The notes under the pieces are model-generated. The model saw only the letters and a list, made by a program, of their open reading frames with translations, made no database searches and had not been told where the DNA came from. Positions 8,820 to 30,317 of a stretch of 64,000 nucleotides of DNA are shown here, piece after piece. The stretch is taken from the NCBI GenBank assembly GCA_937921305.1, contig CAKZSU010000002.1, positions 1,711 through 65,710 on the forward strand, written 5' to 3'. The translations under genes were made by a program, and so were the position numbers. Each line of letters begins with the position of its first letter. Position 1 is the stretch's first letter. Source of the stretch: an uncultured Patescibacteria group bacterium (GTDB taxonomy: Bacteria; Patescibacteriota; Microgenomatia; UBA10105; UBA927).

Positions 8820-9791
8820 TTATGAATGTATTGAGATTTTTTTCTCTTTCTCCTGTCGAATATTCATCGTCTCTTTCACAATATACCGAGGACGGCGTTT
8901 AACTTCCAAAAAAATTTTCGCGATATATTCTGCAATCACCGAGAGAGATAATAACTGTACACCACCTAAAAATAACACAAGCACAATAACGGTCGTAATC
9001 CCTGGCGCGGCTTTCCGATACCACACGCCCCACACAAGATTGATCATCAAAAATATGACAGAGAACAGTGTTACGATTCCTCCAAGATAAGAAATGAGTT
9101 GCAATGGTTTGAAAGAAAAATTCAGAATAATCGTTTTCGCCCAATACAATCCGCTTATAAAACTCTCGGTTGTCCTCCCATACGTTCTCGCCGCGCGAAC
9201 ATACGGAATGCCGATTTGTCGAAACCCAACAAACGCTCGCAAACACCGAAGATAATAATCATATTCTGGAATCGCGAGAAGTTCCTCTGCCACCCGTCTG
9301 CTTATCAGCGAAAACTCTCCCGCGTCCAACGGAATCTGAATATACGCAAGGTTTTTTAAGAGATAATAAAATGCGTGATAGTAAAAATTCCATAATCGAC
9401 CATATCCCTCTCGTCGTTCTCGAACCCCATAGACAACATCATATCCCTGCTCGTAATACGCAAGCATCTTTGGCAACAGTTCCGGCGGATCCTGAATATC
9501 GCCATGAAGAAGAAGGATTGCGTCGCCTGTCGCGTACTCGATACCAGCGAGGAAACTCGGCTGTGGAGACCCAAAGTTCCTGCTCATGAGAATCACTTTG
9601 ACTTGTTGATCGCGCTTCACAAGCTCTTTGTACACGCGAAGAGATCCGTCGGTGGACGCGTTGTCAACATAGAGTATCTCATACGTATACGATCGAAGAG
9701 TGAAAAAAACCCGACGAATACGATCGTACATTTCTTTGATATTCTCTTCTTCGTTGTAGCAGGTAACAACGACGGAAATTCGCTTTTTCAT
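8820..9791 (-). CDS. GT2 polyprenyl-phosphate sugar transferase (GtrB/CsbB/ArnC/DPM1-like) with C-terminal TM helices
   Basis: N-terminus ISVVVTCYNEEENI...YEILYVDNASTDGS carries the GT-A DXD signature. The C-terminal ~90 aa contain two hydrophobic helices, as in bactoprenol-phosphate glycosyltransferases. Confidence 0.8.
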   Translation of the reverse strand: MKKRISVVVTCYNEEENIKEMYDRIRRVFFTLRSYTYEILYVDNASTDGSLRVYKELVKRDQQVKVILMSRNFGSPQPSFLAGIEYATGDAILLLHGDIQDPPELLPKMLAYYEQGYDVVYGVRERREGYGRLWNFYYHAFYYLLKNLAYIQIPLDAGEFSLISRRVAEELLAIPEYDYYLRCLRAFVGFRQIGIPYVRAARTYGRTTESFISGLYWAKTIILNFSFKPLQLISYLGGIVTLFSVIFLMINLVWGVWYRKAAPGITTVIVLVLFLGGVQLLSLSVIAEYIAKIFLEVKRRPRYIVKETMNIRQEKEKKISIHS

Positions 9792-9800
9792 AATGTCTTT

Positions 9801-10952
9801 CTAGCGTCTCATCTCCTGAAGTATCGCGTTCAATGCCTTCCCAACAAAGAACACATCGCGTTTCGTCAGATTACCTGCTGACGGCAACGATATACCCTGA
9901 GCGGCGACGCGAGTCGCGACCGGATTTGGAAATCGCGATGGCGCGTAAAGCGGAAATTCGCTCATGCGAGGAAACGCCGGACGCGCGTGAATGTTTAACG
10001 CCTTGAGCTTTGCAAGAATCACATCTCGCTCTAATCGCATATGACGAGGAAGAAGCAATGACGGATAACAATAATTGCTTCGGACATCGCCTTGCTCCTC
10101 AAGAAGATCAATACCAGACACTCCATCCAACGCTTCTCGATACCACGAATGGATTTGTCGCTTTCTTGCTACCAATTCTTCAATCCGTTCAACTTGCGCC
10201 AACGCAAGAGAGGCAGTAAGATTGGCAATCGTGTATTGAAATCCTAACATATCGGACCAAAATACTGCCCTGCTATCCGTCCTTCCCATGCTCGCAAGAA
10301 GTTTCGCTTTCTTATAATATTCCTCATTATTTGTCACCAATATGCCTCCTTCTCCGCTTACCGCAATCTTCGCGCCATGAAAACTAAAGCATCCGATATC
10401 TCCAAATGTTCCAACATGTTTTCCTTTATAGGTCGATCCAAGTGCCGGCGCCGCGTCTTCGACAACCTTCAACTGATATTTCCTCGCGATTACCATAATC
10501 CTGTCCATATCGGAAGGGTGACCAAAGGTATGCACAAGCATGATCCCCTTTGTTTTTTTTGTAATTGCCCGTTCAATTGCGTCCGGATCAATACACCATG
10601 TCTTTGGATCGATATCTACAAATACTGGCGTCGCTCCTGTATAGGAAATCGCGTACGCGGTCGCGACCCACGAAAAATCTGTACAGATAACCTCATCGCC
10701 TTCTTTGAATCCTAGCGTTTCACAGGCGAGATGGAGCGCGAGCGTGCAACAATGGGTCGCGATTGCGTACCTTGCGCCAATATATTCGCAAACTGTTTGT
10801 TCGAGCTTTCGGACATGCTGATCAAAGGTTTCATAAAATCCATATAAAACGCCATCACGGACATACTGAACTTCTTTTTTTGTGATCCACGGACCGGCAA
10901 ATGCGATTTTCTTTTTGCTTGGTGAAAGACATCGACTGCCTCTTGATTTCAT
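9801..10952 (-). CDS. DegT/DnrJ/EryC1/StrS-family PLP-dependent sugar aminotransferase
   Basis: FSFHGAKIAVSGEGG has the PLP lysine in a typical context. Overall length 383 aa. Conserved DAA...G and GD(E)VI motifs. Confidence 0.85.
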   Translation of the reverse strand: MKSRGSRCLSPSKKKIAFAGPWITKKEVQYVRDGVLYGFYETFDQHVRKLEQTVCEYIGARYAIATHCCTLALHLACETLGFKEGDEVICTDFSWVATAYAISYTGATPVFVDIDPKTWCIDPDAIERAITKKTKGIMLVHTFGHPSDMDRIMVIARKYQLKVVEDAAPALGSTYKGKHVGTFGDIGCFSFHGAKIAVSGEGGILVTNNEEYYKKAKLLASMGRTDSRAVFWSDMLGFQYTIANLTASLALAQVERIEELVARKRQIHSWYREALDGVSGIDLLEEQGDVRSNYCYPSLLLPRHMRLERDVILAKLKALNIHARPAFPRMSEFPLYAPSRFPNPVATRVAAQGISLPSAGNLTKRDVFFVGKALNAILQEMRR

Positions 10953-11623
10953 GCAACCTCCTTTTTCATGTACACATGATACCTCGATATGTTCGGACCG
11001 TCATCTGTTTCACCCCACACGCCGCCATCGTCTGCTTGGTGAAACACCACAGGGACGCGACGCGTTTCCGAAAACCCTAATCGATAATATAACATCAACG
11101 CCTTACTGTTATCCGATGTTGTCTGTAAGGTAAACACGCGAATCGATAACACATGTTTTACCCACTCCATAAGCGTTTCAAGAGAAGCTTGCATGATCCC
11201 TTTCCGCCCCTCCTCGCCTCGCACAATATTGTCAAGATCAATGGACCGCTGATTCGGATCGTAACGAAACAATCCCACATGCCCGATATACCGATCATCA
11301 ACGCGAATCAAAAACAGTATGCGATCCCCCACATCAAGCACCCGCTCTTTAAGCCACGATCGCGTTCGTTCTTCTGTAACAGGAAAGATCGATGGAAACC
11401 ATCGTTCATGCGTTTTTCTCCATCGAGCAAGCAATCGAATAATCTCTTGATCGTTCAGACAATCATAGGTGACACACCATAAAGAAAATGGATTATTTTG
11501 AATCGTTCCGCGCAAGACATGGGAACCAAACGGCGATTGTTTCCATTCATGGAATATATCGATATGACGATCACTCATGCATTGCTTCATTTCTCTATTG
11601 GAGAGAAAAACATCTTCACGCAT
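10949..11623 (-). CDS. GNAT-family N-acetyltransferase (amino-sugar N-acetyltransferase candidate)
   Basis: Acetyl-CoA binding-like segment RGEEGRKGIMQASLETL and a C-terminal YYRLGF motif. Lies immediately downstream of the aminotransferase with a 4-nt overlap. Confidence 0.5.
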   Translation of the reverse strand: MREDVFLSNREMKQCMSDRHIDIFHEWKQSPFGSHVLRGTIQNNPFSLWCVTYDCLNDQEIIRLLARWRKTHERWFPSIFPVTEERTRSWLKERVLDVGDRILFLIRVDDRYIGHVGLFRYDPNQRSIDLDNIVRGEEGRKGIMQASLETLMEWVKHVLSIRVFTLQTTSDNSKALMLYYRLGFSETRRVPVVFHQADDGGVWGETDDGPNISRYHVYMKKEVA

Positions 11624-12114
11624 CGATCAATCCATAAGAAAAGCACGCACCCTCGCATCGCAAATGGTTTTATATAGACGACCCCATCGCGACGCAGCAG
11701 ACGCATCGAAACACATCGATCAAGATGTTGTTTAACAATAGCGCGCGGACGAAACGCGCAAGAGATCTCCGCGGCAGATCGTCCGTCTCTCCCCGCGTTG
11801 GCGATATAGGCGAGAAGACGAATCGTCAGCGATTCATTAAACACGCGGAACACAGTAAAAAGATATAGCGTAACGACTCCATGAAAGATCGCCTGAGATG
11901 CTACAGCGACAATAACCACGGTTTGCGGTGTCATCACATCAAGCATTCGCATCGCAATAAGCGATAACACCAACAAAAAACTAATAAACATCTGGAGCCA
12001 AAAACTAAACATCAATCGATGATGATCATCGACATAGCGAACAAATATAACCTGAATGAGCGCATACGCGATAGTGCCCACAAAAGAAAACGCCACAATA
12101 AAGATATCTATCAT
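11587..12114 (-). CDS. small membrane protein (4 TM) with C-terminal winged-helix-like segment; paralog of upstream gene
   Basis: Track ORF 11587..12240 trimmed to the internal ATG at 12114-12112. This ATG forms an ATGA overlap with the stop of the upstream gene. Four hydrophobic helices are followed by LTIRLLAYIAN...SAAEIS...RLLRRDGVVYIKP. Confidence 0.4.
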   Translation of the reverse strand: MIDIFIVAFSFVGTIAYALIQVIFVRYVDDHHRLMFSFWLQMFISFLLVLSLIAMRMLDVMTPQTVVIVAVASQAIFHGVVTLYLFTVFRVFNESLTIRLLAYIANAGRDGRSAAEISCAFRPRAIVKQHLDRCVSMRLLRRDGVVYIKPFAMRGCVLFLWIDRCVKMFFSPIEK

Positions 12115-12602
12115 ACTCGATTCTCCATACCGCACATCGTTCCGACAATATGAAACAACACATTCACTATCCTTCCTTTTAGCGTAGCGCGCCATCTCGA
12201 TTGCTTCTGCTCTATCAATCCCATAGCTTGCAAGGAACAAAGACGAGATGTAATCAATGCGTTTTTAGAAAGCTCTTTCAATATTTCCTCCTCCCGCAGA
12301 GACGACACACCGCGAAACATCGATACGATAAGAAAAAACACCGAGCGTCGTTGCGGAATATACAAGAGAGAAAACAGCGAAAAAAAGCATCCGACAATGC
12401 ATGAAACAACCAAAAGCGTAAACGGATATGCCGAATCGTATGGAATAATACTATTCCTCGCCACCAAATAGGGAAAAAGCGGTATATACATCAACCCCAA
12501 CAAAAACAAAAGAACCTTGTAACGAAACAATAGCCGATATGCAACCGCGTGAATACACAGTGTGGCAAATACCCATCCTGCGACAATCACGAGTCCTTCC
12601 AT
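12111..12602 (-). CDS. small membrane protein (3-4 TM) with C-terminal winged-helix-like segment
   Basis: Hydrophobic N-terminal two-thirds. The C-terminus EEEILKELSKNALITSRLCSLQAMGLIEQK resembles a wHTH. Confidence 0.4.
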   Translation of the reverse strand: MEGLVIVAGWVFATLCIHAVAYRLLFRYKVLLFLLGLMYIPLFPYLVARNSIIPYDSAYPFTLLVVSCIVGCFFSLFSLLYIPQRRSVFFLIVSMFRGVSSLREEEILKELSKNALITSRLCSLQAMGLIEQKQSRWRATLKGRIVNVLFHIVGTMCGMENRV

Positions 12603-12607: not shown

Positions 12608-13621
12608 TTATGAAACCAATGAAAATATCACGGCATCTTTTTGAGATGTCAAGGGATTATTGTTCGAAAACATATATGATTCGTACCATGCGTAGACCGA
12701 TGAAGCCATGTCAGGAAGACGTTTCTTTGGGGTCCAACCGAGAATAGTCTTCGCCTTTTCATACGATAATGACTGCGCGGGTATTTCATGCGCCGCCGTA
12801 TTTTGTATCGTATATGAGATCGTTCTTTTTAACGCGTTTTCAAACACGCGAACCAAATCGAGAACCGAACACACATCATCGCTTCCAAAGTTAAACGCCT
12901 GTCCCTTTAGTTCCGACGCGCGCTCCGCGAGCATCAAGTACCCCTCCACCACATCCTTGACATACACATATGCGCGCGTGTGCTTCCCATTGCTTCGAAT
13001 GTGAAATGGTTCGTTGCGAAGGATAGAAAATATCATACCGGGAATAACGCGAGACGGATGAAGATCCCCTTCTCCATAAATATTCCCAAAACGGGTGATA
13101 ACAACAGGAAGATTATAGGTCTCTGCATAAGTTTGCGCGATCAAATCAGCCGACGACTTAGACACTTCATAGGGATGTTTGCCAACCAACGGATCGTCTT
13201 CTCTATATGGACGATCCAACCTCCCATATGCCTTGTCAGACGACGCGACAATCACACTCTCGATCCATGGCGATATTCTCACGGCCTCAAGCATGTTGAC
13301 TGTCCCAAGAATATTCGTCGCCAATGTTTCGCGGGGATTGACAAACGCGGGAACAACCAGCGGTTGCGCCGCAAGATGAAAGAGTATCGAAATTTCATTG
13401 GATGTCACGATATCAATCACGCGCTCCGCGTCTTTAACATCGCCAATCAGCATCGTTGTTTTTTTATGAAGACCCTGAGAAAAAAAATATCCCGCAGGAT
13501 ACGCGGTTCGCGTTAGAACAAACACATGCGCGCCCAACGCAACGAGCGCTTCCACAAGGTGGCTTCCTACAAACCCTGCTCCACCGGTCACCAACACACG
13601 TTTATGAGCGAAATATGACAT
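12608..13621 (-). CDS. NAD-dependent sugar-nucleotide 4,6-dehydratase (CDP-glucose 4,6-dehydratase-like SDR)
   Basis: N-terminal Rossmann motif VLVTGGAGFVGSHL and catalytic YEVSK (YxxxK). Sits adjacent to a glucose-1-phosphate cytidylyltransferase. Confidence 0.7.
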   Translation of the reverse strand: MSYFAHKRVLVTGGAGFVGSHLVEALVALGAHVFVLTRTAYPAGYFFSQGLHKKTTMLIGDVKDAERVIDIVTSNEISILFHLAAQPLVVPAFVNPRETLATNILGTVNMLEAVRISPWIESVIVASSDKAYGRLDRPYREDDPLVGKHPYEVSKSSADLIAQTYAETYNLPVVITRFGNIYGEGDLHPSRVIPGMIFSILRNEPFHIRSNGKHTRAYVYVKDVVEGYLMLAERASELKGQAFNFGSDDVCSVLDLVRVFENALKRTISYTIQNTAAHEIPAQSLSYEKAKTILGWTPKKRLPDMASSVYAWYESYMFSNNNPLTSQKDAVIFSLVS

Positions 13622-13624: not shown

Positions 13625-14446
13625 CTACTTCCAAATCTTCCATGGAGCGTTTCCGCTCTCCCACAGAGCATTCAAATTTTGCACATCCACATAGGTGTCC
13701 ATGGCATGCCAAAATCCCTCATGAATGTATAAAGAAAGCTGTCGGTCGCGAATCAATCGCTTAATCGCTTCATGCTCCATCTCGCCATGACGAAGATACG
13801 AGAAAAACCGTTTATCAAACACCATGAACCCCCCATTCACCCAATCATTCTTTAACACAGGCTTTTCCACAAATCGTGTCACACGAAGCTGTTTGTCCAC
13901 ACGAACCATGCCGTACTTCGTTCGCGGATGAACGCCAGTGATCGTCCCTATTCTTCCTTGCGCTTTATGAAACGCGACAAGATTGGCGATATTGATATCG
14001 CTCACGCCATCGCCATAAGTTACCATAAACAAGTCATCGTTTTCTAGAATATATTCCTTCACGCGAAGAATTCGCTCGCCGGGCAATGTCTCCAACCCTG
14101 TATCAACAAAGGTGATGATAAAATCATCAATCCCGTCAGGTCCCGGCTTGTGAATCTTCTTCTTTCCTGTTTTTGTATGAATTGTAAAATCGTGAAGAAA
14201 ATACTGCTGATTTAAGAAATAATCTTTAATGTATTCTCCTTTGTATCCAAGAGCAATGATAAATTCGTTAAACCCATACGACGCGTAGATCTTCATAATA
14301 TGCCACAAGATCGGCTTATTTCCGATCGCGACCATCGGTTTTGGCTTGAATTCTGTTTCTTCTTTTAATCGATAGCCAATCCCGCCAGAAAGAATGATCG
14401 TTTTCATGCTGCCCCCTAATGAATCACACTTTGAATGGAGAATCAA
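13625..14446 (-). CDS. rfbF: glucose-1-phosphate cytidylyltransferase
   Basis: MKTIILSGGIGYRLKEETEFKPKPMVAIGNKPILWHIMKIYASYGFNEFIIALGYKG matches the RfbF N-terminus almost residue for residue. The true start is probably the internal ATG at 14407. Confidence 0.8.
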   Translation of the reverse strand: MILHSKCDSLGGSMKTIILSGGIGYRLKEETEFKPKPMVAIGNKPILWHIMKIYASYGFNEFIIALGYKGEYIKDYFLNQQYFLHDFTIHTKTGKKKIHKPGPDGIDDFIITFVDTGLETLPGERILRVKEYILENDDLFMVTYGDGVSDINIANLVAFHKAQGRIGTITGVHPRTKYGMVRVDKQLRVTRFVEKPVLKNDWVNGGFMVFDKRFFSYLRHGEMEHEAIKRLIRDRQLSLYIHEGFWHAMDTYVDVQNLNALWESGNAPWKIWK

Positions 14447-15372
14447 GAGGAAGATGAAACGCGAGCATATCGATTTCGTATTTCTTCGACAATCAGCGCT
14501 GGGGATACCCCATGCGCCTTACGAACATACGACTGCGTGCCAACGATATGAGAACTGTACGATCGAACGCCAACGCGATATAATGGAAACGCGATCTGAT
14601 GATCGGCAAAATACTCGGCAACGATCGTCCCAAGTCCTCCGTTTATCGCATGTTCCTCGATTGTCACAATCATCTTTTTTGTCTTGACGACTTCTTCCAA
14701 TAGATTGGTATCAAACGGAACAAGCGTATGCATGCTTACCACCATCGCGTAAATATGGTCATCCGCTAATCGACGCGCAACCTCTATCGCCACTTCAAGG
14801 ATGCTTGATGTGGAAAAGATCGCGATATCATCGCCGTCCTGAAGAATGTTCCCCTTTCCAAGTTCGACAGGGCGGGTTGTGTAGGTAGGCTCCCCTTTTT
14901 TCCCAAGACGAAGATAAACTGGCCCGAAGCGACGAAGCGCTTGACGCGTGAGTTCCCTCGCCTCCACAGGATCGCCAGGAGCAAGAATTGCAAGATTTGG
15001 CAATAACCGCATCATGCCAATATCTTCCAAGCTGTGATGCGAATACCCATATGGTCCATACGAAAACCCCGCCCCGACGCCGACAATCAACACCGGCAGG
15101 TTGTGATAGCAAATATCGTTCCGAAGCTGTTCGATATTTCGCATGGTAATGAACGGAATAATGGAATAAATGACAGGACGATACCCCTCAAATGCAAGCC
15201 CCGCGGCGATGCCCGTCATCGACTGTTCCATGATCCCGCAATTCAAATATTGATTAGGCAACTCTTCCTGAAATCGCTCAAATACCGAATATCCTAAATC
15301 TCCGGTCAGGAGCATAATCGATGGGTCTTTTTTCGCCTCCTCACGCAATACATCAGCGAACGCGTTTCTCAT
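14443..15372 (-). CDS. transketolase, C-terminal (pyrimidine-binding) subunit
   Basis: EQSMTGIAAGLAFEGYRPVIYS...PGDPVEARE pattern of split transketolase subunit B. Confidence 0.8.
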   Translation of the reverse strand: MRNAFADVLREEAKKDPSIMLLTGDLGYSVFERFQEELPNQYLNCGIMEQSMTGIAAGLAFEGYRPVIYSIIPFITMRNIEQLRNDICYHNLPVLIVGVGAGFSYGPYGYSHHSLEDIGMMRLLPNLAILAPGDPVEARELTRQALRRFGPVYLRLGKKGEPTYTTRPVELGKGNILQDGDDIAIFSTSSILEVAIEVARRLADDHIYAMVVSMHTLVPFDTNLLEEVVKTKKMIVTIEEHAINGGLGTIVAEYFADHQIAFPLYRVGVRSYSSHIVGTQSYVRKAHGVSPALIVEEIRNRYARVSSSS

Positions 15373-16198
15373 ATTCCTCCTTTGTAGGCGGCACGTATTG
15401 AGAAGAAACCTGATTCACATGTTGCGGCGGACCACCTTTTCCTTTGATTGTATTCGCAATGATGACAGAGGGTTTTCCCTTTTGAAATGGAATAATAGAA
15501 CATACGCGATGCAACGATCGAAACGAATGACCGTTACATGATCTCGCCGCCCATCCAAAACTTCGCCATTTTGCTCCAAACGGTTTCAAGGATATGACAT
15601 CGTCAACATACCCATACCCTTGCAGTCGATTGTAATCAATAATCACAACAAGATTCTCAAGCCCATGATGCGCTGCGAACAACGCGGATTCCCATGTTGT
15701 TCCTTCATCACACTCACCGTCAGAGAGAATCGCATATACCGCATGCGTTTTCCGTTGTTTTTTCCCTGCAAGCGCCATACCAACAGCAATTGGCAATCCA
15801 TGCCCAAGCGATCCTGACGACACCTCAATGCCCGGAACCGCGCCCCTCGTTGTGTGACCAGCCAGCGCTCCTCCATCCAATTCGTAACCATCAAGAAGCG
15901 ATGGATCAAAGAATCCTCGACGCGCAAGAATCGCATACAACGCTTTTGCATCGTGTCCTTTACTAAACACAAGCCGATCTCGTGACAGATCCAATGGTTT
16001 CTTTGGATCAATCCGCATACGGTAAAAATACAGATACACAAGAATCTCAACACACGAATACGCGCCGCCCGAATGCGCGCTTTGCGCCCGATACGCCATA
16101 CGAAAAATATCAGATCGAATTATTTTTGCTTGTTCTTTTAACTTCCTTAGCGTTTCATCATTCATATGGTATTGATTGGATTGTTCGCCAAGAAGCAT
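15353..16198 (-). CDS. transketolase, N-terminal (TPP-binding) subunit
   Basis: SKGHDAKALYAIL, GHTT...GIEVSSGSLGHGL, ILSDGECDEG and TPP-binding GDG-like motifs. Confidence 0.8.
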   Translation of the reverse strand: MLLGEQSNQYHMNDETLRKLKEQAKIIRSDIFRMAYRAQSAHSGGAYSCVEILVYLYFYRMRIDPKKPLDLSRDRLVFSKGHDAKALYAILARRGFFDPSLLDGYELDGGALAGHTTRGAVPGIEVSSGSLGHGLPIAVGMALAGKKQRKTHAVYAILSDGECDEGTTWESALFAAHHGLENLVVIIDYNRLQGYGYVDDVISLKPFGAKWRSFGWAARSCNGHSFRSLHRVCSIIPFQKGKPSVIIANTIKGKGGPPQHVNQVSSQYVPPTKEEYEKRVR

Positions 16199-17015
16199 AT
16201 CGCATCCCCAACAGATCTTCTGTTTTCTTCACCGCAAGCGCGCTATATTTTGCGTACCGAAGAGGACTATTGCCTAGCGCATAAAACTCCTCAATTGATA
16301 TCTTCGTCACCGTTTGAACGCTTTCTAGAATCATGGTCGTAAATAATTCATACGGAGAAACCAAATCAGGACTTGCAACATGGAATGCTCCTCGCATGCG
16401 TCGATCTATAATACGCCTCAGCGATTCCACAAGATCAGGAAGAAATGTCAATGGAAAATATTGATCAGTAAAAAGCGGAAACAATCGTCCTTCCTGATAC
16501 AATCGAATCATGCGTTGGACATAGTCGTCTCGCATGCCATGTGGAATAACAGGTTGAGCAATGCGAACAATCGCGTCCGCGCCTATTTGTTCCCCAAGAT
16601 ATTTTGTATACCCATACCACCCATTCTTGGTAGGATCAGACTCTGGCTGATCGTCAATCTCAAATGGACCGGGTCGATCATCGGTTCCATGAAACACCGA
16701 TCCTGTGGAGATGTAGATCACAAAGGCGCCAACAGCATGACCGGCGTCAATCACATGCTTCGCGCCATAAACATTTGTTCTGTAACAAATGCCATTACTA
16801 TCTCCTCGCTCACGCTCCGCGTCTGTCGCATTCACATACGCTGCCGCGTGAAGAATAATATCTGGAGATCTTGACGCGATGTATGACTGAACACCTTCTG
16901 GATTAAGAATATCCATATCTTTTCGAGAAGGAGCAAAAAGTATATACGATGAAGACAACAATGAATACAATGCATTTCCAACAAGCCCGCTTGCCCCAGT
17001 GATCAGCACAGTCAT
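16158..17015 (-). CDS. RmlD-like NAD(P)H-dependent sugar-nucleotide 4-ketoreductase
   Basis: VLITGASGLVG Rossmann motif. YGYTK (YxxxK). Length 285 aa, typical of the dTDP-4-dehydrorhamnose reductase family. Confidence 0.65.
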   Translation of the reverse strand: MTVLITGASGLVGNALYSLLSSSYILFAPSRKDMDILNPEGVQSYIASRSPDIILHAAAYVNATDAERERGDSNGICYRTNVYGAKHVIDAGHAVGAFVIYISTGSVFHGTDDRPGPFEIDDQPESDPTKNGWYGYTKYLGEQIGADAIVRIAQPVIPHGMRDDYVQRMIRLYQEGRLFPLFTDQYFPLTFLPDLVESLRRIIDRRMRGAFHVASPDLVSPYELFTTMILESVQTVTKISIEEFYALGNSPLRYAKYSALAVKKTEDLLGMRYASWRTIQSIPYE

Positions 17016-17061: not shown

Positions 17062-18045
17062 ATGATACTCAAAGAGCATTCCATATTGCTCATTGGCGGA
17101 GCGGGATTTATGGGATCCCACCTCACCGAGGCATTATCAAAAGATAATAACATTACAATATATGATAATTTCTCATCATCTGTCGTGTCTGAAGAATCAC
17201 TCAGAGCCATGCCGAATGTCTCGATTGTTCGAGGAGATATTCGCGATGAACAAACGCTTGCCGATGCAATGCACGGACACGATATCGTGATCCATCTTGC
17301 CGCAGCGCACATCCGTCTTTCTCTTTCTGACCCCAAAACAGTGCATGAGATCAACGCCACAGGGACGCTCAACGCGATTCTCGCCGCAAAACAAACAACC
17401 GTCAAACGCTTTGTACACATCTCTTCATCGGAAATCTATGGCACCGCAAAGCATACGCTCATCCAAGAAGACGATCTAAAAGATCCGACAACCGTGTATG
17501 GCGTCAGCAAATATATCGGCGAACTGTACACGCTCTACGCCCATCGCCATGAAGGATTGCCGTCGATGGTTATCAGACTTTTTAATACTTATGGTCCAAG
17601 GGCGCACTGGAATGATGTATTTGGGGAAGTCATTCCGCGCATGTGCGTTCGAGCTCTGTGCGGAAAACCGCCAATCATTTTTGGCGATGGAGAACAAACA
17701 AGAGATTTTACCTATATCACAGACACAATTCATGGAATTATGCTCGCTTCGTCTGAAGACAGGCTCCTTGGGGATGTCGTCAATATCGCGTATGGACAAG
17801 AAGTCTCGATTCATACCGTCGCGGAGGCTATCAAGAAAGAAACTGGCGTCGCTCCCATCTATCTTCCAGCTCGTCCCCACGATGTTCGACGCCACGCCGC
17901 AGACACAACAAAAGCAAAACGAATGCTTGGATGGAATCCGAGAATCGATATTCACACAGGAATACGACAGTATCTTGCATGGTTGAGACAAACATATCCA
18001 GATCCTAATGAATTGTTACCACATGTTCCGGAGCAAAATTGGTAG
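17062..18045 (+). CDS. NAD-dependent sugar-nucleotide epimerase/dehydratase (extended SDR)
   Basis: ILLIGGAGFMGSHL and YGVSK catalytic motif. 327 aa. Confidence 0.75.
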   Translation: MILKEHSILLIGGAGFMGSHLTEALSKDNNITIYDNFSSSVVSEESLRAMPNVSIVRGDIRDEQTLADAMHGHDIVIHLAAAHIRLSLSDPKTVHEINATGTLNAILAAKQTTVKRFVHISSSEIYGTAKHTLIQEDDLKDPTTVYGVSKYIGELYTLYAHRHEGLPSMVIRLFNTYGPRAHWNDVFGEVIPRMCVRALCGKPPIIFGDGEQTRDFTYITDTIHGIMLASSEDRLLGDVVNIAYGQEVSIHTVAEAIKKETGVAPIYLPARPHDVRRHAADTTKAKRMLGWNPRIDIHTGIRQYLAWLRQTYPDPNELLPHVPEQNW

Positions 18046-18046
18046 C

Positions 18047-18751
18047 ATGATTTCCTCAATTTCACTCCTCATCCCAGCCTACAACGCGAAACAGACACTT
18101 CTTCCCGTTCTTACAAAGGCTCGAAGCATAATAGCATCCATCGCCAACGACAGAGAAATCATCGTCCTTGACGACGGATCAACAGACGAAACCTCTCGCA
18201 TTCTTGCCAATCTTTCATGGAAAGAACTCACTATCCTTCGCCATGAAATCAATCAAGGGTATGGAAAAACAATCAAAGATTTATATTACGCGGCGACGAA
18301 AAAATGGCTTGTTACGCTTCCATCCGATGATCAAATCGACCCGGAAGAAATCCGTAAACTGGCCTCTTGCCATGAACAAGGAGCCATGATCTTGGGAAAA
18401 CGATCAATCCGCCACGACCACCTCAAGAGACGAATACAATCGATGATGTACAATACATTATTGCGTCTTCTCTTTGATATTCCCACAACAGACGCAAACA
18501 CGATCAGACTCATGAAGCGAGAAATTCTTCAACATATAACACTTCGCGCAACGAGCGCGTTTGTTGACGCCGAGCTCATCATCGCGGCTCGAAACGCTGG
18601 ATATACCATTGTTGAAGTTCCGATTAACCATAAACCCAGAACAACGCCCGGCGCGACCGGCGGAAAATTCTTCGCAACCATTCTCCCAACGATTCAAGAC
18701 ATGATCGCGTATGCGATAACGCGTTCTTCTCGCCAATTCACACAATCATGA
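18047..18751 (+). CDS. GT2 family glycosyltransferase
   Basis: ISLLIPAYNAK...IVLDDGSTDET (DXD-type GT-A signature). The start was moved to the internal ATG just after the upstream stop. Confidence 0.7.
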   Translation: MISSISLLIPAYNAKQTLLPVLTKARSIIASIANDREIIVLDDGSTDETSRILANLSWKELTILRHEINQGYGKTIKDLYYAATKKWLVTLPSDDQIDPEEIRKLASCHEQGAMILGKRSIRHDHLKRRIQSMMYNTLLRLLFDIPTTDANTIRLMKREILQHITLRATSAFVDAELIIAARNAGYTIVEVPINHKPRTTPGATGGKFFATILPTIQDMIAYAITRSSRQFTQS

Positions 18752-18770: not shown

Positions 18771-19808
18771 ATGATTCGCGTCCTCGTATTGGGAGCAGGC
18801 GGAGCTCCCTCAACAAATGTTGTCCGATCGCTCAAGAAAAAACGAAAGGCATACTACCTTGTTGGAACGGACGCAAATCCGTATTATCTTGCCCGAGCCG
18901 AGACAGACAAAACTTATCTTGTGCCAAAAGCAGACGATCCCGCGTTCCTCCCAAAACTTCGAGACATTATTCAAAAAGAGCAGATTGAGTATGTCCATAT
19001 TCAAAACGACAAAGAAGTCGCAGTTATCAGCGACCATAGAAATGAAATTCCCGCAACTCTCTTTCTGCCATCACAAGACACGGTTCGCGTCTGTCAAGAT
19101 AAATACGCATCGTATCTCCGGTGGAAACACGCGGGCATTCGTGTGCCGGAAACTATGATGATTAATACAGAAGACGATGTTAAACAAGCATTTTCCTTGT
19201 TTGATGGAATGATCTGGCTTCGATTCACAACTGGCGCGGCAGGAAACGGCTCGCTTAAACCAAAAAATGTTCAACAAGCAATCGCGTGGATCACTTTCCA
19301 CGATGGTTGGGGAAAATTTACCGCGGCGCGCGTGCTTGAGCCAGAAAGCGTCACATGGATGTCCATCTGGTATCAAGGAGAACTTATTGTCGCGCAAGGA
19401 CGAAAACGATTGTATTGGGAAGCGAGCCACCTCGCGCCTTCAGGCATCACTGGCATCACCGGCGCAGGCATCACGATTGACGACCCCGTAGTTGACGACA
19501 TCTCCATAAAAGCAATCAAAGCGATCGATCCCTCTCCACATGGACTCTACGGCGTTGATTTAACATACGATCACACCGGCATCCCAAATCCAACAGAAAT
19601 TAACATTGGACGATTTTTTACCACGCACTTATTTTTTACAGAACTTGGACTCAACATGCCGCATATCGCGGTATCGCTAGCCCTAGGGAAGAAACCAAAG
19701 CTCCCAAAAAAACGGATCAATCCGTTAGATCCTGGATGGGTGTGGATTCGCGGCGTAGACTTCGCCCCTATCCTTATTCGCGAAGAAAACATTGGAAATA
19801 ATCAGTAA
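18771..19808 (+). CDS. ATP-grasp domain protein
   Basis: Glycine-rich N-terminus (RVLVLGAGGAPS) and central/B-loop-like segments resemble PylC/carbamoyl-phosphate-synthase-like ATP-grasp ligases. Assignment from motif recollection only. Confidence 0.45.
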   Translation: MIRVLVLGAGGAPSTNVVRSLKKKRKAYYLVGTDANPYYLARAETDKTYLVPKADDPAFLPKLRDIIQKEQIEYVHIQNDKEVAVISDHRNEIPATLFLPSQDTVRVCQDKYASYLRWKHAGIRVPETMMINTEDDVKQAFSLFDGMIWLRFTTGAAGNGSLKPKNVQQAIAWITFHDGWGKFTAARVLEPESVTWMSIWYQGELIVAQGRKRLYWEASHLAPSGITGITGAGITIDDPVVDDISIKAIKAIDPSPHGLYGVDLTYDHTGIPNPTEINIGRFFTTHLFFTELGLNMPHIAVSLALGKKPKLPKKRINPLDPGWVWIRGVDFAPILIREENIGNNQ

Positions 19809-19850
19809 TCGGCTATTGGCAATCGGCAGTTGATTGTTAGGTGTAATCCT

Positions 19851-20483
19851 ATGACCATTTTTATCGATCTTGACGGAACCATTCTTCACACATTCGTTCG
19901 GCATATCGCAACGCATCACGCGGTTGCGCCTCGCGTTGGACTGCCGATCATTCCTAAAGAAGCATATTGGAGAAAAAAACGAGAGAAACAGACGCCATGG
20001 AACGAGATCTCTCAAGAACAACTCAAAGCATATACAAATCTTTTTCGCATTGAAACCGAACGATCAATCTATCTTTCTCTCGACACGCCGGTGTTTGGCA
20101 TAAAAATGCTTCTGAAAGATCTCACAAAACGCGTTGATCTTGTTCTTGTCACAAAACGATACAACAGAACAAACACGCTGTTTCAGCTCTATGATCTCAA
20201 TCTTCTCTCTTGCTTCACCGATGTGCTCACACCGTTTCCATCCTCGAAACGCGACGCAATTCAAACATATGGATATACACACCGAGATATCGTCATCGGC
20301 GACACAGAAGAAGACATTGAAACCGCAAACGAACTTACCCTTCGGTCTGTCGCCGTCTCATGGGGCATGAGGTCGCCGACCTATCTTGCGTCGCTTGGCC
20401 CAACACGACTCTGTCATACCGTAAAACAATTAAAAAATAATCTCTTTGTCTTGCTTAAGGAGAACTATCCATTGACCAAATGA
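19851..20483 (+). CDS. HAD-superfamily hydrolase
   Basis: Motif I FIDLDGTIL. Later VITKR and GDTEEDIETA motifs are consistent with HAD phosphatases. Confidence 0.6.
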   Translation: MTIFIDLDGTILHTFVRHIATHHAVAPRVGLPIIPKEAYWRKKREKQTPWNEISQEQLKAYTNLFRIETERSIYLSLDTPVFGIKMLLKDLTKRVDLVLVTKRYNRTNTLFQLYDLNLLSCFTDVLTPFPSSKRDAIQTYGYTHRDIVIGDTEEDIETANELTLRSVAVSWGMRSPTYLASLGPTRLCHTVKQLKNNLFVLLKENYPLTK

Positions 20484-20496
20484 TTCCCTTCCTTTA

Positions 20497-21137
20497 GTGT
20501 GTAATCGTATGAACCATACCTTCGCGTCAGTGATGGGAACCATGGGATCAGGGAAAACCACCATCGCGAATCTCATAGCGCAAGAGTGCGAATACACCCT
20601 TGTTCTCGAACAATTTGAAAACAACCCATTTCTTCCGAAATTTTACGCGGATATGAAACGATGGGCGTTTCATTCGCAAATGTTTTTTCTTCTTGAAAAG
20701 GCAAAACAACTTCATGGGATTCCTTCGTTGCTACAACAACAGTCTGTGATTCAAGACACGCCGATCATGCAAGATGTATATCATACGGGAAGGCGCAATA
20801 CGAACTTGGAAACATGGATCATCATGAGTGGAATCTGTATCTCAAAACATACGAAACGATCAGCGCGCATCTTCCAAAACCCGATGTGATCGTCTATCTC
20901 AAGACATCTATCGATACTCTTATGAAACGCATCAAACATCGAGGAAGATCATACGAACAATCAATTCCCAAAGACTATATTGCACTGCTAGATAGACTCA
21001 ACACCTTATGGATTGAATCAACCGACATTCCGATCATTGTTATCGATACCGATGAACGAGATATTGTAAACAAAGAACGCGACAGAGAGTATATAATCAT
21101 TACCCTTCGTCATGAACTTGCCCGTTATGCGCGATAG
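20497..21137 (+). pseudogene. deoxynucleoside kinase (dCK/dGK family) interrupted by a +/-1 frameshift
   Basis: P-loop GTMGSGKTT lies in frame 1 (20497..20889). The ERS-like region, lid region (RIKHRGRSYEQ) and C-terminus lie in frame 0 (to 21137). Homology to the dNK family continues across the frame change near 20700-20760. Confidence 0.5.
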
Positions 21138-21139: not shown

Positions 21140-22687
21140 ATGCATAAATTCTTGCTGTTTTTATTTCTCTCATTTGTTGGCACATCGTTGCTTGTCTATA
21201 TCTTCCAAACACGCCAATACCCTCAATGGGATGAACATCACTATCTTACGATCGCGGTAACAACACTTGACGACATCAAGGAACATGGCATCACCGGCAC
21301 ATTCTCGATTCTTGAAAACAGCGGTCATCGACAACCGATTTATCCACTCATCATCGCGACAATCCTACTCGTTACAGGAACAGATCATACCTATAAGATC
21401 GCGCTTGGCCTCAACGCGCTCCTCTTTTGTCTCACGATGATTGGAATTTATCGTATTGCTCGACGATGGCTTTCCAAAACAGCAAGCCTGTTCGCGGTAA
21501 TCACATTTGGAACCTATGGAAACGCACTCTTTTACGCGCATTTTACCTATGTCGAAACCGCGGTCACCGCGGCAATTGTCTGGGCGATCGTCGCGATTCA
21601 TAAAACACAGAAATTTGCAAACACCAAATGGAGTCTCGTCGCGGGGGCGATCGTTTCCGCCGCGACGCTCACGCGATTTATCGCGCCCGCGTTCCTTGCT
21701 GGACCAATCCTTGCGGAATTAATAACCTCGCGGAAACCGTCTCGCGTGTTTTTCAAAAACGCGGGACTCTTTCTTATCATCTCGATAGGATTGCCACTCA
21801 TACTCTACTTTATTCCCAACCGTGAACCATTTTTAGAGTATGTCCGCAACAATCAGACACTTGGACCAGAATGGGTTGCGCAGTATCGCGATCCAGCCAT
21901 GGCAAACATATTCTCCATACGATCGATTATGTATTACTTCAACATCCTACAACAAAACACGATCATTCCATTTCTTGCGTTTGTGTTTGGCATAATGATT
22001 CTGCTTTGGAATATTCCTCGAATCGTTTTAAGAGCATCGTCGAAATATCCTATTTCCATGATTGTGCATCTTCTCTTCTCATTTCTTTTTCCTTATGCGT
22101 TTCTTACTTTCATCACGATTTGGAAAGAGGATCGATTCATCGTTCCGCTCTACCCAACCATGGCGATTATTTCCGCTGTCTTTGTGGATTCGCTTCGCCG
22201 ATGGAGAATGATTCAAACACTTTGCATCACGCTTCTTGTCGGCGTGGGGTTCATGAATTTCTTTGGTGGGCTGTTTGGCATCGGACCAGCGGGACAACGC
22301 GGACTCGTGGATTACATCACGCCCCGATGGGTGCCTCACCCGCGACGAATCTATTTCACACCTCTTGTGTGGCCGCCAACAAAAGAATACACAAATGCGA
22401 GACTCGCCGCGACGATAATTCAAAATGATTGGCAAAATAAAGAACAGACAGACATTGGCATCACGTTTGACCATGAACCATTTATCAACGCGTTTTCTAG
22501 TCTTTTATGGTATGAACAACGAACGCTAGGAACGCTACATCTACAGGCAACAGAAGATATGGAATTTCTTGATTATCTATTCACACAACAGCCTGTTCGC
22601 CATGAAGAACGATGGAAACTCATCGCGACCATTCCGATACCATACGACAAGAGCGACGCCCTTCTCTATAGAAGAATTACTCAGTAA
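21140..22687 (+). CDS. GT-C fold glycosyltransferase, ArnT/PMT-like (GT39/GT83-like)
   Basis: TM1 is followed by PQWDEHHY, a DE motif in the first extracytoplasmic loop as in ArnT/PMT enzymes. Multiple further TM helices. 515 aa. Confidence 0.55.
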   Translation: MHKFLLFLFLSFVGTSLLVYIFQTRQYPQWDEHHYLTIAVTTLDDIKEHGITGTFSILENSGHRQPIYPLIIATILLVTGTDHTYKIALGLNALLFCLTMIGIYRIARRWLSKTASLFAVITFGTYGNALFYAHFTYVETAVTAAIVWAIVAIHKTQKFANTKWSLVAGAIVSAATLTRFIAPAFLAGPILAELITSRKPSRVFFKNAGLFLIISIGLPLILYFIPNREPFLEYVRNNQTLGPEWVAQYRDPAMANIFSIRSIMYYFNILQQNTIIPFLAFVFGIMILLWNIPRIVLRASSKYPISMIVHLLFSFLFPYAFLTFITIWKEDRFIVPLYPTMAIISAVFVDSLRRWRMIQTLCITLLVGVGFMNFFGGLFGIGPAGQRGLVDYITPRWVPHPRRIYFTPLVWPPTKEYTNARLAATIIQNDWQNKEQTDIGITFDHEPFINAFSSLLWYEQRTLGTLHLQATEDMEFLDYLFTQQPVRHEERWKLIATIPIPYDKSDALLYRRITQ

Positions 22688-24440
22688 CCCTGTACACAAC
22701 AGCCATATCGTTTCGATACACTTCCGTCAAAAATGGATAAAACACGCGAAGATCATCCGCTCCATACGCCATTTCCCGCTCTTCAGGGCCAAACAACACA
22801 TATTGAATCCTATTTTCTCTAAACACAGGAGGAAACTCATTAGCCGGACGTTTTCTTCCAAAAAAATTCGCGACAATAATCCCCTTTTCTTCCACTTTCA
22901 CCGTGTTGGCATGACCAATATACGCATAATTCCCCGCGTAGACAGGAATAAGATTGCCTGTAGCTAGACCAGAGAATATAGCAACATCTCGCGGTGTATT
23001 TACTTGAAGCCACACCATCGCATCAACAAGATCACGCAATGGATACATCACTTCAGCGCCTTTTGGCACAAGTGGAATATCTGCGCGTAATTTGTGATCC
23101 ACAAAATCCTTTTGCCATAACCACGACGAATACATGCTCCCCATTCCAAGAAGAATCACTACAATCGGAATAAGCAACACAATATCTGACACTGTTGATA
23201 CGTTTTTCTTTTTGATCCATTTATACAGCCCCCATACGCCATAGAGCGATAACACGCCAAGCGGAATATGCGGGGCCATTTGTGAAAATCGCGTCGGCGA
23301 TTGTTGCGGAATATAATTAAATATCACAATAAACGCCAACCACGCGATCACCCAAACAACAAATCCAAGAAACTTCTGCTCTCTTTTAATGATGACAACC
23401 AACAACCCAAGAAGCCCCAACGGCAACACTGGACCAACCGCCAAAAAATACTCGATATATGAAAACTTCGTCGGGTGCAATACATCAAATTCCACCAGCC
23501 GCTTCCATGGATACTGTTGAAATAGAAGCGCGTAATACACCATCGTTGGGAATGTCATTGCGACGAACACGATTCGTCCAAACAATCGCTCTTTGAAAAG
23601 CGTCCAAAACGATCCACTGATCAACCGACGCGATGCTAGAGTCCGAGCAACAAATAATCCTCCCACATCAACAATCATCCATAATGCAAGAACGCCGTAC
23701 AAGAAAAACAACGCGGGAGGAAATATCACCCCAAGAAGCACACCAATCCAGCCAAGAAATACCCAATTCCCGTACCGTCTCTTTGTGAGAAATCCTCCGG
23801 AAAACACCCAAAGAAAAAACGCGAGCATTGCTTGTCCGACCAACACATGCGGAAGAAACGTCGTTCGTTGCAAGCTATCCATCATAGTATACCACGGCAT
23901 GTAACCGCCAAAGCGAGGCCATCCGTCAACGGTTTCCAGTTTGGGCCATGTTGATGCCGTCACGATGAGCAAAAACGAAAGAATCTGCCACGAAAAACTC
24001 GGAAACGCCCATCGCGAAATCTGCCATATAACAAACAACAACACTCCAGCGAAAAATACTCGCATGGTGTGATATGACAACCATACATATGGCGTTTGCA
24101 CATGAAGCCAATCAGACACACGACCAATAAAAACATAGAGTATTTGACTCAAACTTCCCTCGTGCGGTTCCGTCGTGTACTTCTCTTTCGCAAGCCACGC
24201 ACCCTCCTTGCCCTGCCGAATTTTAGAAAGATACAACTGATAGTCTGTTGGGAAATTATGAACCAACTCAAAATATCGGATCGGTTTAATCTTCCACCGA
24301 TTCATCCATTCATAGAGCGTCGGCGTCATCGAAAACAGGAGAAAAAAACCAATCAAAAATAACGGAAGCAACGACCGAACATATCGAAACACCCGAGCAG
24401 TCATAGTGATAGTATGTAGTGTACAAAATTTAGAAAGCAT
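22677..24440 (-). CDS. large polytopic membrane protein, putative GT-C glycosyltransferase
   Basis: More than 10 hydrophobic helices. No soluble catalytic motif. Context among other GT-C genes. Confidence 0.4.
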   Translation of the reverse strand: MLSKFCTLHTITMTARVFRYVRSLLPLFLIGFFLLFSMTPTLYEWMNRWKIKPIRYFELVHNFPTDYQLYLSKIRQGKEGAWLAKEKYTTEPHEGSLSQILYVFIGRVSDWLHVQTPYVWLSYHTMRVFFAGVLLFVIWQISRWAFPSFSWQILSFLLIVTASTWPKLETVDGWPRFGGYMPWYTMMDSLQRTTFLPHVLVGQAMLAFFLWVFSGGFLTKRRYGNWVFLGWIGVLLGVIFPPALFFLYGVLALWMIVDVGGLFVARTLASRRLISGSFWTLFKERLFGRIVFVAMTFPTMVYYALLFQQYPWKRLVEFDVLHPTKFSYIEYFLAVGPVLPLGLLGLLVVIIKREQKFLGFVVWVIAWLAFIVIFNYIPQQSPTRFSQMAPHIPLGVLSLYGVWGLYKWIKKKNVSTVSDIVLLIPIVVILLGMGSMYSSWLWQKDFVDHKLRADIPLVPKGAEVMYPLRDLVDAMVWLQVNTPRDVAIFSGLATGNLIPVYAGNYAYIGHANTVKVEEKGIIVANFFGRKRPANEFPPVFRENRIQYVLFGPEEREMAYGADDLRVFYPFLTEVYRNDMAVVYRVTE

Positions 24441-30043: not shown

Positions 30044-30114
30044 GGGCTCGTAGTATACCGGTAGAACGTCTCCATGGCATGGAGAAGGAAGGGGTTCAAT
30101 TCCCCTCGAGTCCA
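30044..30114 (+). tRNA. tRNA-Ala (anticodon GGC)
   Basis: Hand-folded cloverleaf. Acceptor stem GGGCTCG/CGAGTCC with a G3:U70 pair (alanine identity). Anticodon stem TCTCC/GGAGA with loop ATGGCAT. T-arm AGGGG-TTCAATT-CCCCT. The D-arm is irregular. No encoded CCA. Confidence 0.55.
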
Positions 30115-30244
30115 CCCCTCCTCAATCCTACATTTAGATAGCGCGAAACCCGTCTACAAACTTCATCGCGGAACACACATTGCAAAGATAGTAATCAATT
30201 GTGATGAAGAAGCAATAATCTTATGGTAGAATAATAATTGCTTT

Positions 30245-30317
30245 GGGCCTGTAGCACAGTTGGTAATGCGCCGCATTCGCATTGCGGAGATCAGCGGTTC
30301 GAATCCGCTCAGGTCCA
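30245..30317 (+). tRNA. tRNA-Ala (anticodon CGC)
   Basis: Acceptor stem GGGCCTG/CAGGTCC with G3:U70. Anticodon stem CCGCA/TGCGG with loop TTCGCAT. T-arm AGCGG-TTCGAAT-CCGCT. Confidence 0.75.

Follow-up and report, generated by a model that had tools for sequence, protein, structure and literature searches.

Described Routes to Two-Carbon Branches on Sugars

Two types of thiamine diphosphate (ThDP)-dependent enzyme have been described that place a two-carbon branch on a keto sugar. One is YerE of Yersinia pseudotuberculosis, which adds a two-carbon unit to the C-4 ketone of 3,6-dideoxy-4-keto-glucose linked to cytidine diphosphate (CDP), after which a reductase finishes the branch of yersiniose A (PMC12247030). 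The other type comprises enzymes that resemble the E1 component of pyruvate dehydrogenase (PDH-E1-like enzymes, alpha-KADH2), such as those of aldgamycin and kibdelomycin (KbDH-alpha/beta), in which a two-subunit ThDP enzyme sets a C2 branch on a deoxy-keto sugar. The present work concerns a pair of transketolase (TK)-like genes in a 64,000-nucleotide stretch of DNA (the window) from an uncultured Patescibacteria group bacterium. Both open reading frames (ORFs) are uninterrupted on the minus strand, at positions 15353..16198 for the N subunit and 14443..15372 for the C subunit. The loss of residues that hold pentose phosphates, together with the company of CDP-glucose genes, makes it most likely that the pair builds an unusual branched surface sugar rather than serving central metabolism.

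The logic of the YerE pathway, with its reductase YerF, is similar to that predicted for the window locus: CDP-glucose is made, a 4,6-dehydratase and in some cases RfbH act on it, a ThDP enzyme adds two carbons and a reductase follows. Genes like those of the YerE partners RfbF and RfbG flank the TK of the window, and RfbH flanks the TK in close relatives but is absent from the window. However, YerE is a pyruvate-using member of the decarboxylase (acetolactate-synthase-like) superfamily, whereas the window pair is of the TK family; the likeness is a functional analogy, with homology only in the ThDP fold, and no Pfam matches to the YerE-type TPP_enzyme N/M/C architecture or its FAD binding were found in the pair. 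The PDH-E1-like enzymes are also from another ThDP superfamily and use pyruvate. In these systems, the branch ketone is later reduced or transaminated, which matches the short-chain dehydrogenase/reductase (SDR) and DegT partners of the clade to which the window pair belongs.

The sequence-only reading of this DNA cited streptose and yersiniose as sugars branched by split TKs. Streptose arises by ring contraction, and this precedent falls away. Yersiniose is no better an example, as it is made by YerE, an acetolactate-synthase-like ThDP flavoenzyme and not a TK (PMC12247030). Branching of the TK type is not an established reaction and has only been proposed for miharamycin and amipurimycin: split-gene TKs were suggested to form the hydroxyacetyl branch of these compounds on a keto-sugar acceptor, and 13 further homologues were noted in Streptomyces, none of them proven in vitro (PMC12247030). 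Compared by description only, these enzymes are likewise split TKs in sugar-tailoring clusters; they sit in Streptomyces nucleoside-antibiotic clusters, whereas the window TK sits in a CDP-hexose cell-surface cluster.

Among the enzymes of known structure, the best match is the split-gene TK of Carboxydothermus hydrogenoformans, with E-values of 3.7e-58 for the N chain of 6YAK (200 bits) and 1.4e-51 for 6YAJ (179 bits, C subunit). It has the same two-gene architecture and fold family as the window pair, shares about 39% identity with it over the concatenated alignment and is an ordinary TK according to its PDB title. A split gene is also found for the housekeeping TK of Microgenomates, where it adjoins an aldolase (PMC7143001). 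Being split is therefore not informative, although it had been read as a sign of a non-housekeeping TK.

A Split TK-Like Gene Pair

The N subunit (ThDP-binding PP domain) matches Transketolase_N (PF00456, E = 6e-33, 114.7 bits against a cut-off of 22). The C subunit of 309 aa (Pyr and C-terminal domains) matches Transket_pyr (PF02779, E = 8.6e-35, 120.4 bits, cut-off 27) and Transketolase_C (PF02780, E = 1.7e-22, 80.1 bits, cut-off 25.9). All three TK-family domains exceed their gathering thresholds by far, which upholds the earlier assignment of a TK divided into N and C subunits; the pair is evidently a genuine split TK-like enzyme. The overlap of the two genes was also given correctly as 20 nt: the stop codon of the N gene lies at 15353-15355 and the C gene starts with ATG 15372, which is preceded by a strong ribosome binding site, AAGGAGG.

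The longest ORF of the N gene starts with ATG 16198 and encodes 281 aa, while an in-frame ATG at 16165 gives 270 aa. The latter overlaps the stop codon of the upstream reductase gene as ATGAATGA and is the probable start, with 16198 as a further possibility. The 270-aa product is 100% identical to a database protein (P0001) over 270 aa, and exact database look-ups of the N subunit with either start gave no match. An exact copy of the C subunit is encoded on a 108-kb metagenomic contig (ENA ERZ6864144, c_000002508511).

The best NCBIfam TK model gave 223.5 bits for the N subunit and 168.8 bits for the C subunit, and the sum of 392 is below the full-length equivalog cut-off of 488. Compared with DXS, the N subunit is clearly TK-like (223 bits for TK and 24 for DXS), and the C subunit scores 169 bits for TK and 161 for DXS. 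An E1_dh match of the N subunit stays below the Pfam threshold (19 bits, cut-off 22). The N subunit ends in an odd C-terminal tail, and a frameshift was considered as its origin. This was rejected, because the other frames hold stop codons or unrelated sequence and the tail is kept in 111/120 relatives.

Relatives, Phylogeny and Conserved Synteny

The best protein matches come from genomes of Gottesmanbacteria, Levybacteria and the 'Patescibacteria group', and the closest relatives of the N subunit are 60-65% identical. Where the 240 listed relatives carry a name in the database, it is 'transketolase' or 'hypothetical protein'. A second homology search, started from a proteobacterial member, returned only uncultured organisms annotated with 'transketolase', and searches of the literature brought up no description of a TK in such a setting as a CDP-hexose cluster.

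The five metagenomic relatives on long contigs (P0005, P0049, P0009, P0054 and P0006) all lie in CDP-hexose clusters of the same type, which contain an NTP_transferase, a 4,6-dehydratase, a family 2 glycosyltransferase (GT2), a DegT protein, a GNAT or sugar N-formyltransferase, TK_N, TK_C, a long DegT protein and PMT_2 or YfhO proteins. The long DegT protein of the relatives is RfbH (CDP-6-deoxy-4-hexulose 3-dehydrase), with 616-733 bits against a cut-off of 423 in four loci (L002, L008, L016 and L047); those of L054 and L055 are about 60% identical to it. In place of the RfbH of its nearest relatives, the window has an RmlD-like gene.

A scan of GTDB with one genome per species yielded 40 loci with 36-60% identity, in which ORFs were called and compared with the proteins of the window. 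Retrieval relied on peptide patterns derived from the query, among them a signature of the clade (ECDEGTTW), so the loci are no random sample of split TKs. The hosts belong to some ten phyla and include Patescibacteria, Actinomycetota (Planktophila/Nanopelagicales and others), Gammaproteobacteria, Elusimicrobia, Holophagales, Gemmatimonadales, Planctomycetes and Bacillota, along with an Enterovibrio plasmid. An RfbF-like gene stands beside the TK in 25 of the 40 loci, usually with RfbG and an ArnC-like GT2, and RfbH is present in many as well. Of the rest, eight show sugar genes of other kinds only, two break off at the TK and five have unrelated contexts (L025, L029, L039, L042 and L046). None of the isolates among the retrieved genomes has the TK next to RfbF/RfbG. 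In the actinobacterial type, RfbF (364.5 bits, cut-off 300) and RfbG (373.4 bits, cut-off 278) are bona fide equivalogs. In the related loci, the TK always adjoins an SDR or a pyridoxal-phosphate enzyme able to process a new ketone; in the large actinobacterial branch, no aminotransferase accompanies the TK. Because the association of TK with CDP-hexose genes recurs in relatives from many phyla, it goes far beyond chance.

Phylogeny agrees with this picture. A neighbour-joining tree of the N subunits was made, as was a bootstrapped tree of the concatenated N and C subunits (36 taxa, 571 columns). The TKs in sugar contexts were split from a group made up of 6YAK/6YAJ, L025, L029, L039 and L042 in 200/200 bootstrap replicates, and the window pair grouped with its CPR-type (candidate phyla radiation) relatives in 200/200. 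It did not group with characterised split TKs or with those outside sugar contexts. On the strength of the 200/200 separation from the 6YAK/6YAJ group, the clustering with housekeeping split TKs that the sequence-only reading had named as the point to check was not found.

Three further observations were made in these loci. In L027-L049, from Planktophila/Nanopelagicales (the abundant freshwater acI Actinobacteria), the genes form a compact and highly conserved module, with RfbF-RfbG-GT2 divergent from TK_N-TK_C; next come an SDR and a number of membrane proteins, each about 560-700 aa long. This suggests that the same sugar may decorate the acI envelope. RfbH-like proteins that lie by the TK at L005:9730-10944, L010:3386-4582, L022:6749-7957 and L023:8737-9960 score 306-359 bits, below the cut-off of 423, and form a distinct subfamily of putative dehydrases or aminotransferases; no E3/RfbI-type reductase was evident at these four loci from Pfam labels and matches to window proteins, unassigned ORFs being unscreened. 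The split TK of Alkalihalobacillus sp. MEB130 (L025:10001-11800) stands in a non-CDP context and shows some of the sugar clade's signature (LGHG, Ser for His461 and Leu for Asp469), but keeps GDG and Arg520; it may be another neofunctionalised TK lineage.

Changes in the Active Site

Residues are numbered after E. coli TktA, anchored on 2R5N (662/663 positions identical). The cofactor site is preserved. The motif for ThDP and Mg2+, GDG-X(~26)-N, and the activating Glu are represented in the window pair by D155, N185 and E411, and the residues kept across the sugar clade are H26, H66, H100, G114, L116, D155, E160, D183, N185, R358, D381, E411, F437 and H473. The ThDP/Mg motif, Glu411 and the equivalents of His26, His66, His100 and His473 are common to the window pair and the C. 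hydrogenoformans TK. The latter keeps GDG, Gln118, Phe434, His461, Asp469 and Arg520, whereas these are replaced in the window. Throughout the clade, Ser replaces the GDG motif's first Gly (SDGECDEG instead of GDGE.xEG), Q118 is His and F434 is Ile.

In TK, R358, S385, H461 and R520 hold the phosphate of the substrate, D469 reads the 2-OH of the acceptor (the 4-OH of the donor), H26 and H261 contact the reacting carbonyl and the 3-OH, and the two-carbon unit is contacted at its C1 hydroxyl by H100. H461 is absent from the sugar clade, with Gly in 35/35 aligned sequences and, in L054 and L055, Ser or Met. At D469, the subclade of the window has Tyr and the rest of the clade Gln, Leu or His, and R520 is Lys in 30/35 sequences. 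The equivalent of S385 could not be aligned reliably. In all 125 sequences of the window's subclade H261 is Gln, and the tail reads HVNQ[VI]SSQYKPPT (HVNQVSSQY in the window) in place of ..WH[YG]. The window itself thus has R358 kept, Gly at 461, Tyr at 469 and Lys at 520, and its catalytic His set is incomplete in comparison with a true TK, with H26, H66, H100 and H473 present and Gln at 261. Its N subunit carries GSLGHG and SDGECDEG, and the pair as a whole fits the clade signature, which is LGHG and [S]DGEC.EG in the N subunit, with His461 and Asp469 absent and Ile434 present in the C subunit.

His461, Asp469 and His261 are regarded as invariant in true TKs. As the pair fails on these three residues and on the equivalog score, it was not filed as a true EC 2.2.1.1 enzyme. 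The enzymes of the clade appear to keep the ThDP chemistry within a rebuilt pocket for aldose and ketose phosphates. The retention of H100 fits a hydroxylated two-carbon unit, and such an intermediate is probably retained. That H461 and D469 are lost speaks mildly for hydroxypyruvate as the donor, ahead of ketose phosphates.

The CDP-Hexose Operon

Ten minus-strand genes run from 17015 to 8820, with neighbours spaced or overlapping by about 40 nt at most, and form a tight operon. Their order is RmlD-like, TK N, TK C, RfbF-like, RfbG-like, two small membrane proteins, GNAT, DegT/LegC aminotransferase and GT2, so that the TK genes are the second and third. The RfbF, 4,6-dehydratase and RmlD-like neighbours that had been described on the same strand were recovered as such by matches to TIGR02623, TIGR02622 and RmlD_sub_bind. 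No pentose-phosphate genes lie near the pair, all of whose neighbours are nucleotide-sugar or glycosyltransferase genes. Neither RfbH nor a second TK was found in the 64-kb window by tblastn, and a further 10 kb of the contig beyond one end contains no TK or pentose-phosphate genes.

The first gene (16158..17015) encodes an RmlD-family NAD(P)H sugar reductase of 285 aa (RmlD_sub_bind, 6e-37) with GxxGxxG and YxxxK motifs; its NCBIfam rmlD score of 129.7 bits is under the equivalog cut-off of 224. Through the overlap of its stop codon with ATG 16165, it is translationally coupled to the TK N subunit. By analogy with YerF, it is proposed to act as a ketoreductase on the TK product. Downstream of the TK genes lie an RfbF-like glucose-1-phosphate cytidylyltransferase (13625..14446), which matches TIGR02623 over its full length (286.6 bits, cut-off 300.25), and an RfbG-like CDP-glucose 4,6-dehydratase of 337 aa (12608..13621) with SSDK and YxxxK motifs, whose best match is TIGR02622 (211 bits, cut-off 278; Pfam Epimerase/GDP_Man_Dehyd). 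For the RfbF-like gene, the longest ORF begins with TTG 14446, and the start of the gene caller at 14407 gives 260 aa. For both proteins, the model named is the best match, with a score short of the equivalog cut-off.

The next two genes (11587..12602), called at 159 aa and 175 aa, encode small polytopic membrane proteins with 3-4 hydrophobic segments each. Neither matches a Pfam or NCBIfam family or has a homologue in the related loci, and both are possible candidates for the flippase subunits of a lipid-linked sugar. They are followed by a GNAT N-acetyltransferase of 224 aa (10949..11623; Acetyltransf_3 and Acetyltransf_1), homologues of which stand directly upstream of TK_N in the closest relatives, and by a sugar aminotransferase of the DegT/LegC/PseC family (9801..10952, 383 aa, PF01041, 1.3e-102). 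The latter is not RfbH: it scores 310.6 bits for the LegC family and only 162.6 for RfbH. The last gene (8820..9791) encodes an ArnC/GtrB/PgfS-like GT2 that matches PgfS (251.6 bits) and ArnC (135 bits), both below cut-off. It has two C-terminal transmembrane helices (segments at 229-291) and homologues of 60-62% identity in the related loci, and is predicted to be a polyprenyl-phosphate sugar synthase.

On the plus strand, a PMT_2/ArnT-like GT-C glycosyltransferase of 515 aa (21140..22687; PMT_2, 1.9e-9; Glyco_transf_22, 6.4e-7) has at least 8 transmembrane segments and is predicted to move the lipid-linked sugar onto an extracytoplasmic acceptor. The ArnC/ArnT and GtrB-type routes likewise involve a GT2 with C-terminal helices, a PMT_2 GT-C enzyme, small membrane proteins, an aminotransferase and an N-acyltransferase; they differ in that the matches of the window are all sub-equivalog and that its nucleotide is predicted to be CDP, not uridine diphosphate. 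The cluster looks like a system for surface glycosylation through a polyprenyl-phosphate sugar and a GT-C enzyme in a CPR bacterium. It is not the O-antigen or capsule locus, in the classical sense, that was assumed earlier.

Proposed Pathway and Alternatives

Very probably, the pair is dedicated to a CDP-hexose pathway and not to the pentose-phosphate pathway. The fuller reading of it as a heteromeric, ThDP-dependent, TK-derived enzyme that was recruited to nucleotide-sugar tailoring and puts a two-carbon ketol onto a CDP-4-keto-6-deoxyhexose is somewhat better than evenly favoured, and the addition of the ketol to the 4-keto sugar in particular is plausible at slightly less than an even chance. 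A pathway of this kind is proposed because the conserved partners are the makers of CDP-4-keto-6-deoxyglucose and a processor of ketones, as in yersiniose A. Of the earlier suggestion that the TK adds a two-carbon ketol to a nucleotide-4-keto sugar, synteny, phylogeny and residues bear out the sugar-pathway part, while the chemistry of the addition is only inferred.

The proposed acceptor, donor, position of attack and fate of the product would be as follows. The RfbF-like enzyme would make CDP-glucose, which the RfbG-like enzyme would convert to CDP-4-keto-6-deoxy-D-glucose. The TK pair would form a dihydroxyethyl-ThDP carbanion from a ketol donor (hydroxypyruvate or a ketose) and add it at the C-4 carbonyl, which would yield a tertiary alcohol with a 4-C-hydroxyacetyl group. 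The new side-chain ketone would then be reduced by the RmlD-like enzyme, paralleling YerE and YerF in yersiniose. In the nearest relatives, RfbH would first remove the 3-OH; as the window has the RmlD-like gene instead of RfbH, its product would keep this group. The aminotransferase and GNAT may aminate and acetylate the branch ketone, as in kibdelomycin, or may turn the same intermediate into a second sugar, 4-acetamido-4,6-dideoxyhexose; the presence of two GT2 genes would fit the latter. The ArnC-like GT2 would load the product onto polyprenyl phosphate, and the GT-C (PMT_2) enzyme would attach the sugar to a cell-surface acceptor.

Several points weigh against this pathway. TKs normally accept aldehydes rather than ketones, and the members of the clade are uncharacterised enzymatically. 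With R358 and Lys520 kept, the substrate may be phosphorylated. The window is without RfbH, so its exact acceptor differs from that of the nearest relatives. Both a reductase and an aminotransferase are present, but the model creates a single new ketone, which implies two products or a different order of steps. In addition, the sample of loci is enriched for the query's own clade by the peptide patterns used, the canonical comparison set is small (five sequences and one PDB entry) and the trees are neighbour-joining only.

One alternative keeps the C-branching of a CDP-keto sugar but changes the donor: pyruvate or another 2-oxo acid would be decarboxylated and an acetyl or hydroxyethyl group moved, as by YerE or the PDH-E1-like enzymes. 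The RfbF-RfbG-RfbH context is that of YerE (PMC12247030). The Gln that replaces H261, a contact of donor and acceptor hydroxyls, throughout the subclade agrees with such a donor, the loss of the phosphate-binding His461 fits one that is small and unphosphorylated, and the C subunit is nearly as close to the pyruvate-using DXS as to TK. However, H100, the ligand of the C1 hydroxyl in TK, is invariant across the clade, the overall similarity is to TK, above all in the N subunit with its 223 against 24 bits, and the E1_dh match is sub-threshold. A non-ketol donor is judged unlikely.

The enzyme may instead leave the C-4 ketone alone and extend an aldehyde (an oxidised C-6 or a free aldose phosphate), or it may supply or remove a two-carbon fragment before nucleotide activation. 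Aldehydes are the natural acceptors of TK, R358 and Lys520 could still bind a phosphate, and the reductase and aminotransferase are easier to explain if the 4-ketone stays available. Against this stand the conserved genes, which include no kinase, mutase or C-6 oxidase and in which the invariant partners are only RfbF, RfbG, GT2 and an SDR or RfbH. Moreover, the 4,6-dehydratase turns C-6 into a methyl group, and Asp469, the reader of the 2-OH in aldose acceptors, is lost. This reading is also judged improbable, to about the same degree as a non-ketol donor.

It is considerably less probable still that the pair is a housekeeping pentose-phosphate TK that stands beside sugar genes by chance. This would be in line with the split housekeeping TKs of other Microgenomates (PMC7143001). 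All cofactor-binding and core catalytic residues are intact, the 64-kb window and the further 10 kb hold no other TK, and CPR genomes are small and often hold genes in a single copy. Yet the same clade recurs in CDP-hexose clusters of about ten phyla and is split from the characterised split TK in 200/200 replicates; His461 and Asp469 are lost, in the subclade His261 too; and the pair is coupled to a sugar reductase with no pentose-phosphate genes nearby. Actinomycetota and Vibrionaceae, which are among the hosts of the clade, have ordinary tkt genes as well.

Least probable of all is an N-glycolylation, in which dihydroxyethyl-ThDP would be oxidised and the glycolyl group handed to an amino sugar: TK-like enzymes feed glycolyl units to some non-ribosomal assembly lines, and an aminotransferase and GNAT stand directly beside the TK in the window's subclade, but no locus has a lipoyl, acyl carrier protein or E2 partner and the large actinobacterial branch lacks the aminotransferase.

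Other Features of the Window

The GT-C gene belongs to a divergent operon on the plus strand, which also encodes an SDR (LegB/dTDP-glucose-4,6-dehydratase-like, 327 aa) and a second, soluble GT2 (ArnC/AglJ-like, 247 aa) at 17062..18751. These are followed at 18771..20889 by accessory genes for an ATP-grasp protein (PylC-like N domain), a HAD hydrolase and a short P-loop protein resembling deoxynucleoside kinase, which have no homologues in the related TK loci. Three large polytopic membrane proteins lie near the cluster, at 22677-24440 (minus strand), 27200-29668 (plus) and 38501-40840 (minus). Two of them (587 aa and 822 aa) are without a family and the 779-aa one is DUF2298; they may be more GT-C-like glycosyltransferases. 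A 627-aa protein with an NPCBM domain is encoded between them. A second glycan-like group at 44306-48463 (minus) comprises two methyltransferases, a GT4, an unassigned ORF of 195 aa and a UbiA-family prenyltransferase.

At 2852-4126 (minus), a GTP cyclohydrolase II domain (residues ~217-397) follows about 215 residues without a family, and this gene adjoins pyrF and a PfkB-family kinase. An ORF of the OMPdecase/HUMPS family was considered as a hexulose-phosphate synthase, an enzyme that would render a TK unnecessary; the ORF was identified as PyrF instead.

The 23S rRNA gene at 55541-59253 (minus) measures 3209 nt against a model of 2925 nt, which implies insertions of about 280 nt. The 5S gene adjoins it; upstream come tRNA-Ala(TGC) and then an aminotransferase gene where 16S would be expected. 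The rRNA operon is thus unlinked, a trait of many CPR bacteria. At 30044-30318 (plus), tRNA-Ala genes with GGC and CGC anticodons stand in tandem, 130 nt apart. The GC skew of the plus strand is -0.06 to -0.20 over almost the whole window (1-64000), whatever the orientation of the genes. The exception is 32000-36000, where the skew is slightly positive, the GC content is 37% and ORFs of 738, 257 and 571 aa have no Pfam match. A disparity in strand composition was reported for a Microgenomates genome (PMC7143001). Many ORFs of the window are without a family assignment. Together with the long 23S gene that lacks a neighbouring 16S and with the origin of the best protein matches, this places the host within the Patescibacteria/CPR, close to the Microgenomates.

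Implications

A review from 2025 reported that no TK had been shown to use a ketone acceptor, the sole candidates being 13 split TKs from antibiotic clusters of Streptomyces, with substrates that are difficult to come by (PMC12247030). The clade of the window pair adds a much larger set of sequences, drawn from many phyla, and its predicted acceptor is simple. Since CDP-4-keto-6-deoxyglucose can be prepared in one pot with RfbF and RfbG, a direct experiment is possible, and the clade could yield a biocatalyst for hydroxy-functionalised tertiary alcohols.

The members occur in CPR bacteria, freshwater acI Actinobacteria, Acidobacteriota, Elusimicrobia and others, and point to a widespread and unstudied ThDP-dependent system for the C-branching of nucleotide sugars on a TK scaffold. 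It is conceivable, at a little under even likelihood, that this large multi-phylum clade of TK-derived enzymes is a third solution to C-branching, after the YerE and E1 types. It would act on a ketone acceptor (a CDP-4-keto-6-deoxy- or 3,6-dideoxy-hexose) and give an undescribed 4-C-(hydroxyacetyl or 1,2-dihydroxyethyl) deoxyhexose that is displayed on the envelope via polyprenyl phosphate.

For genome interpretation, the automatic annotation 'transketolase' can overstate the pentose-phosphate capacity of reduced genomes. If the reading is true, KEGG-style calls of 'transketolase present' in CPR reconstructions would be partly contaminated by a paralogue. For the organisms themselves, the clade suggests that CPR bacteria and abundant freshwater Actinobacteria bear an undescribed surface sugar.

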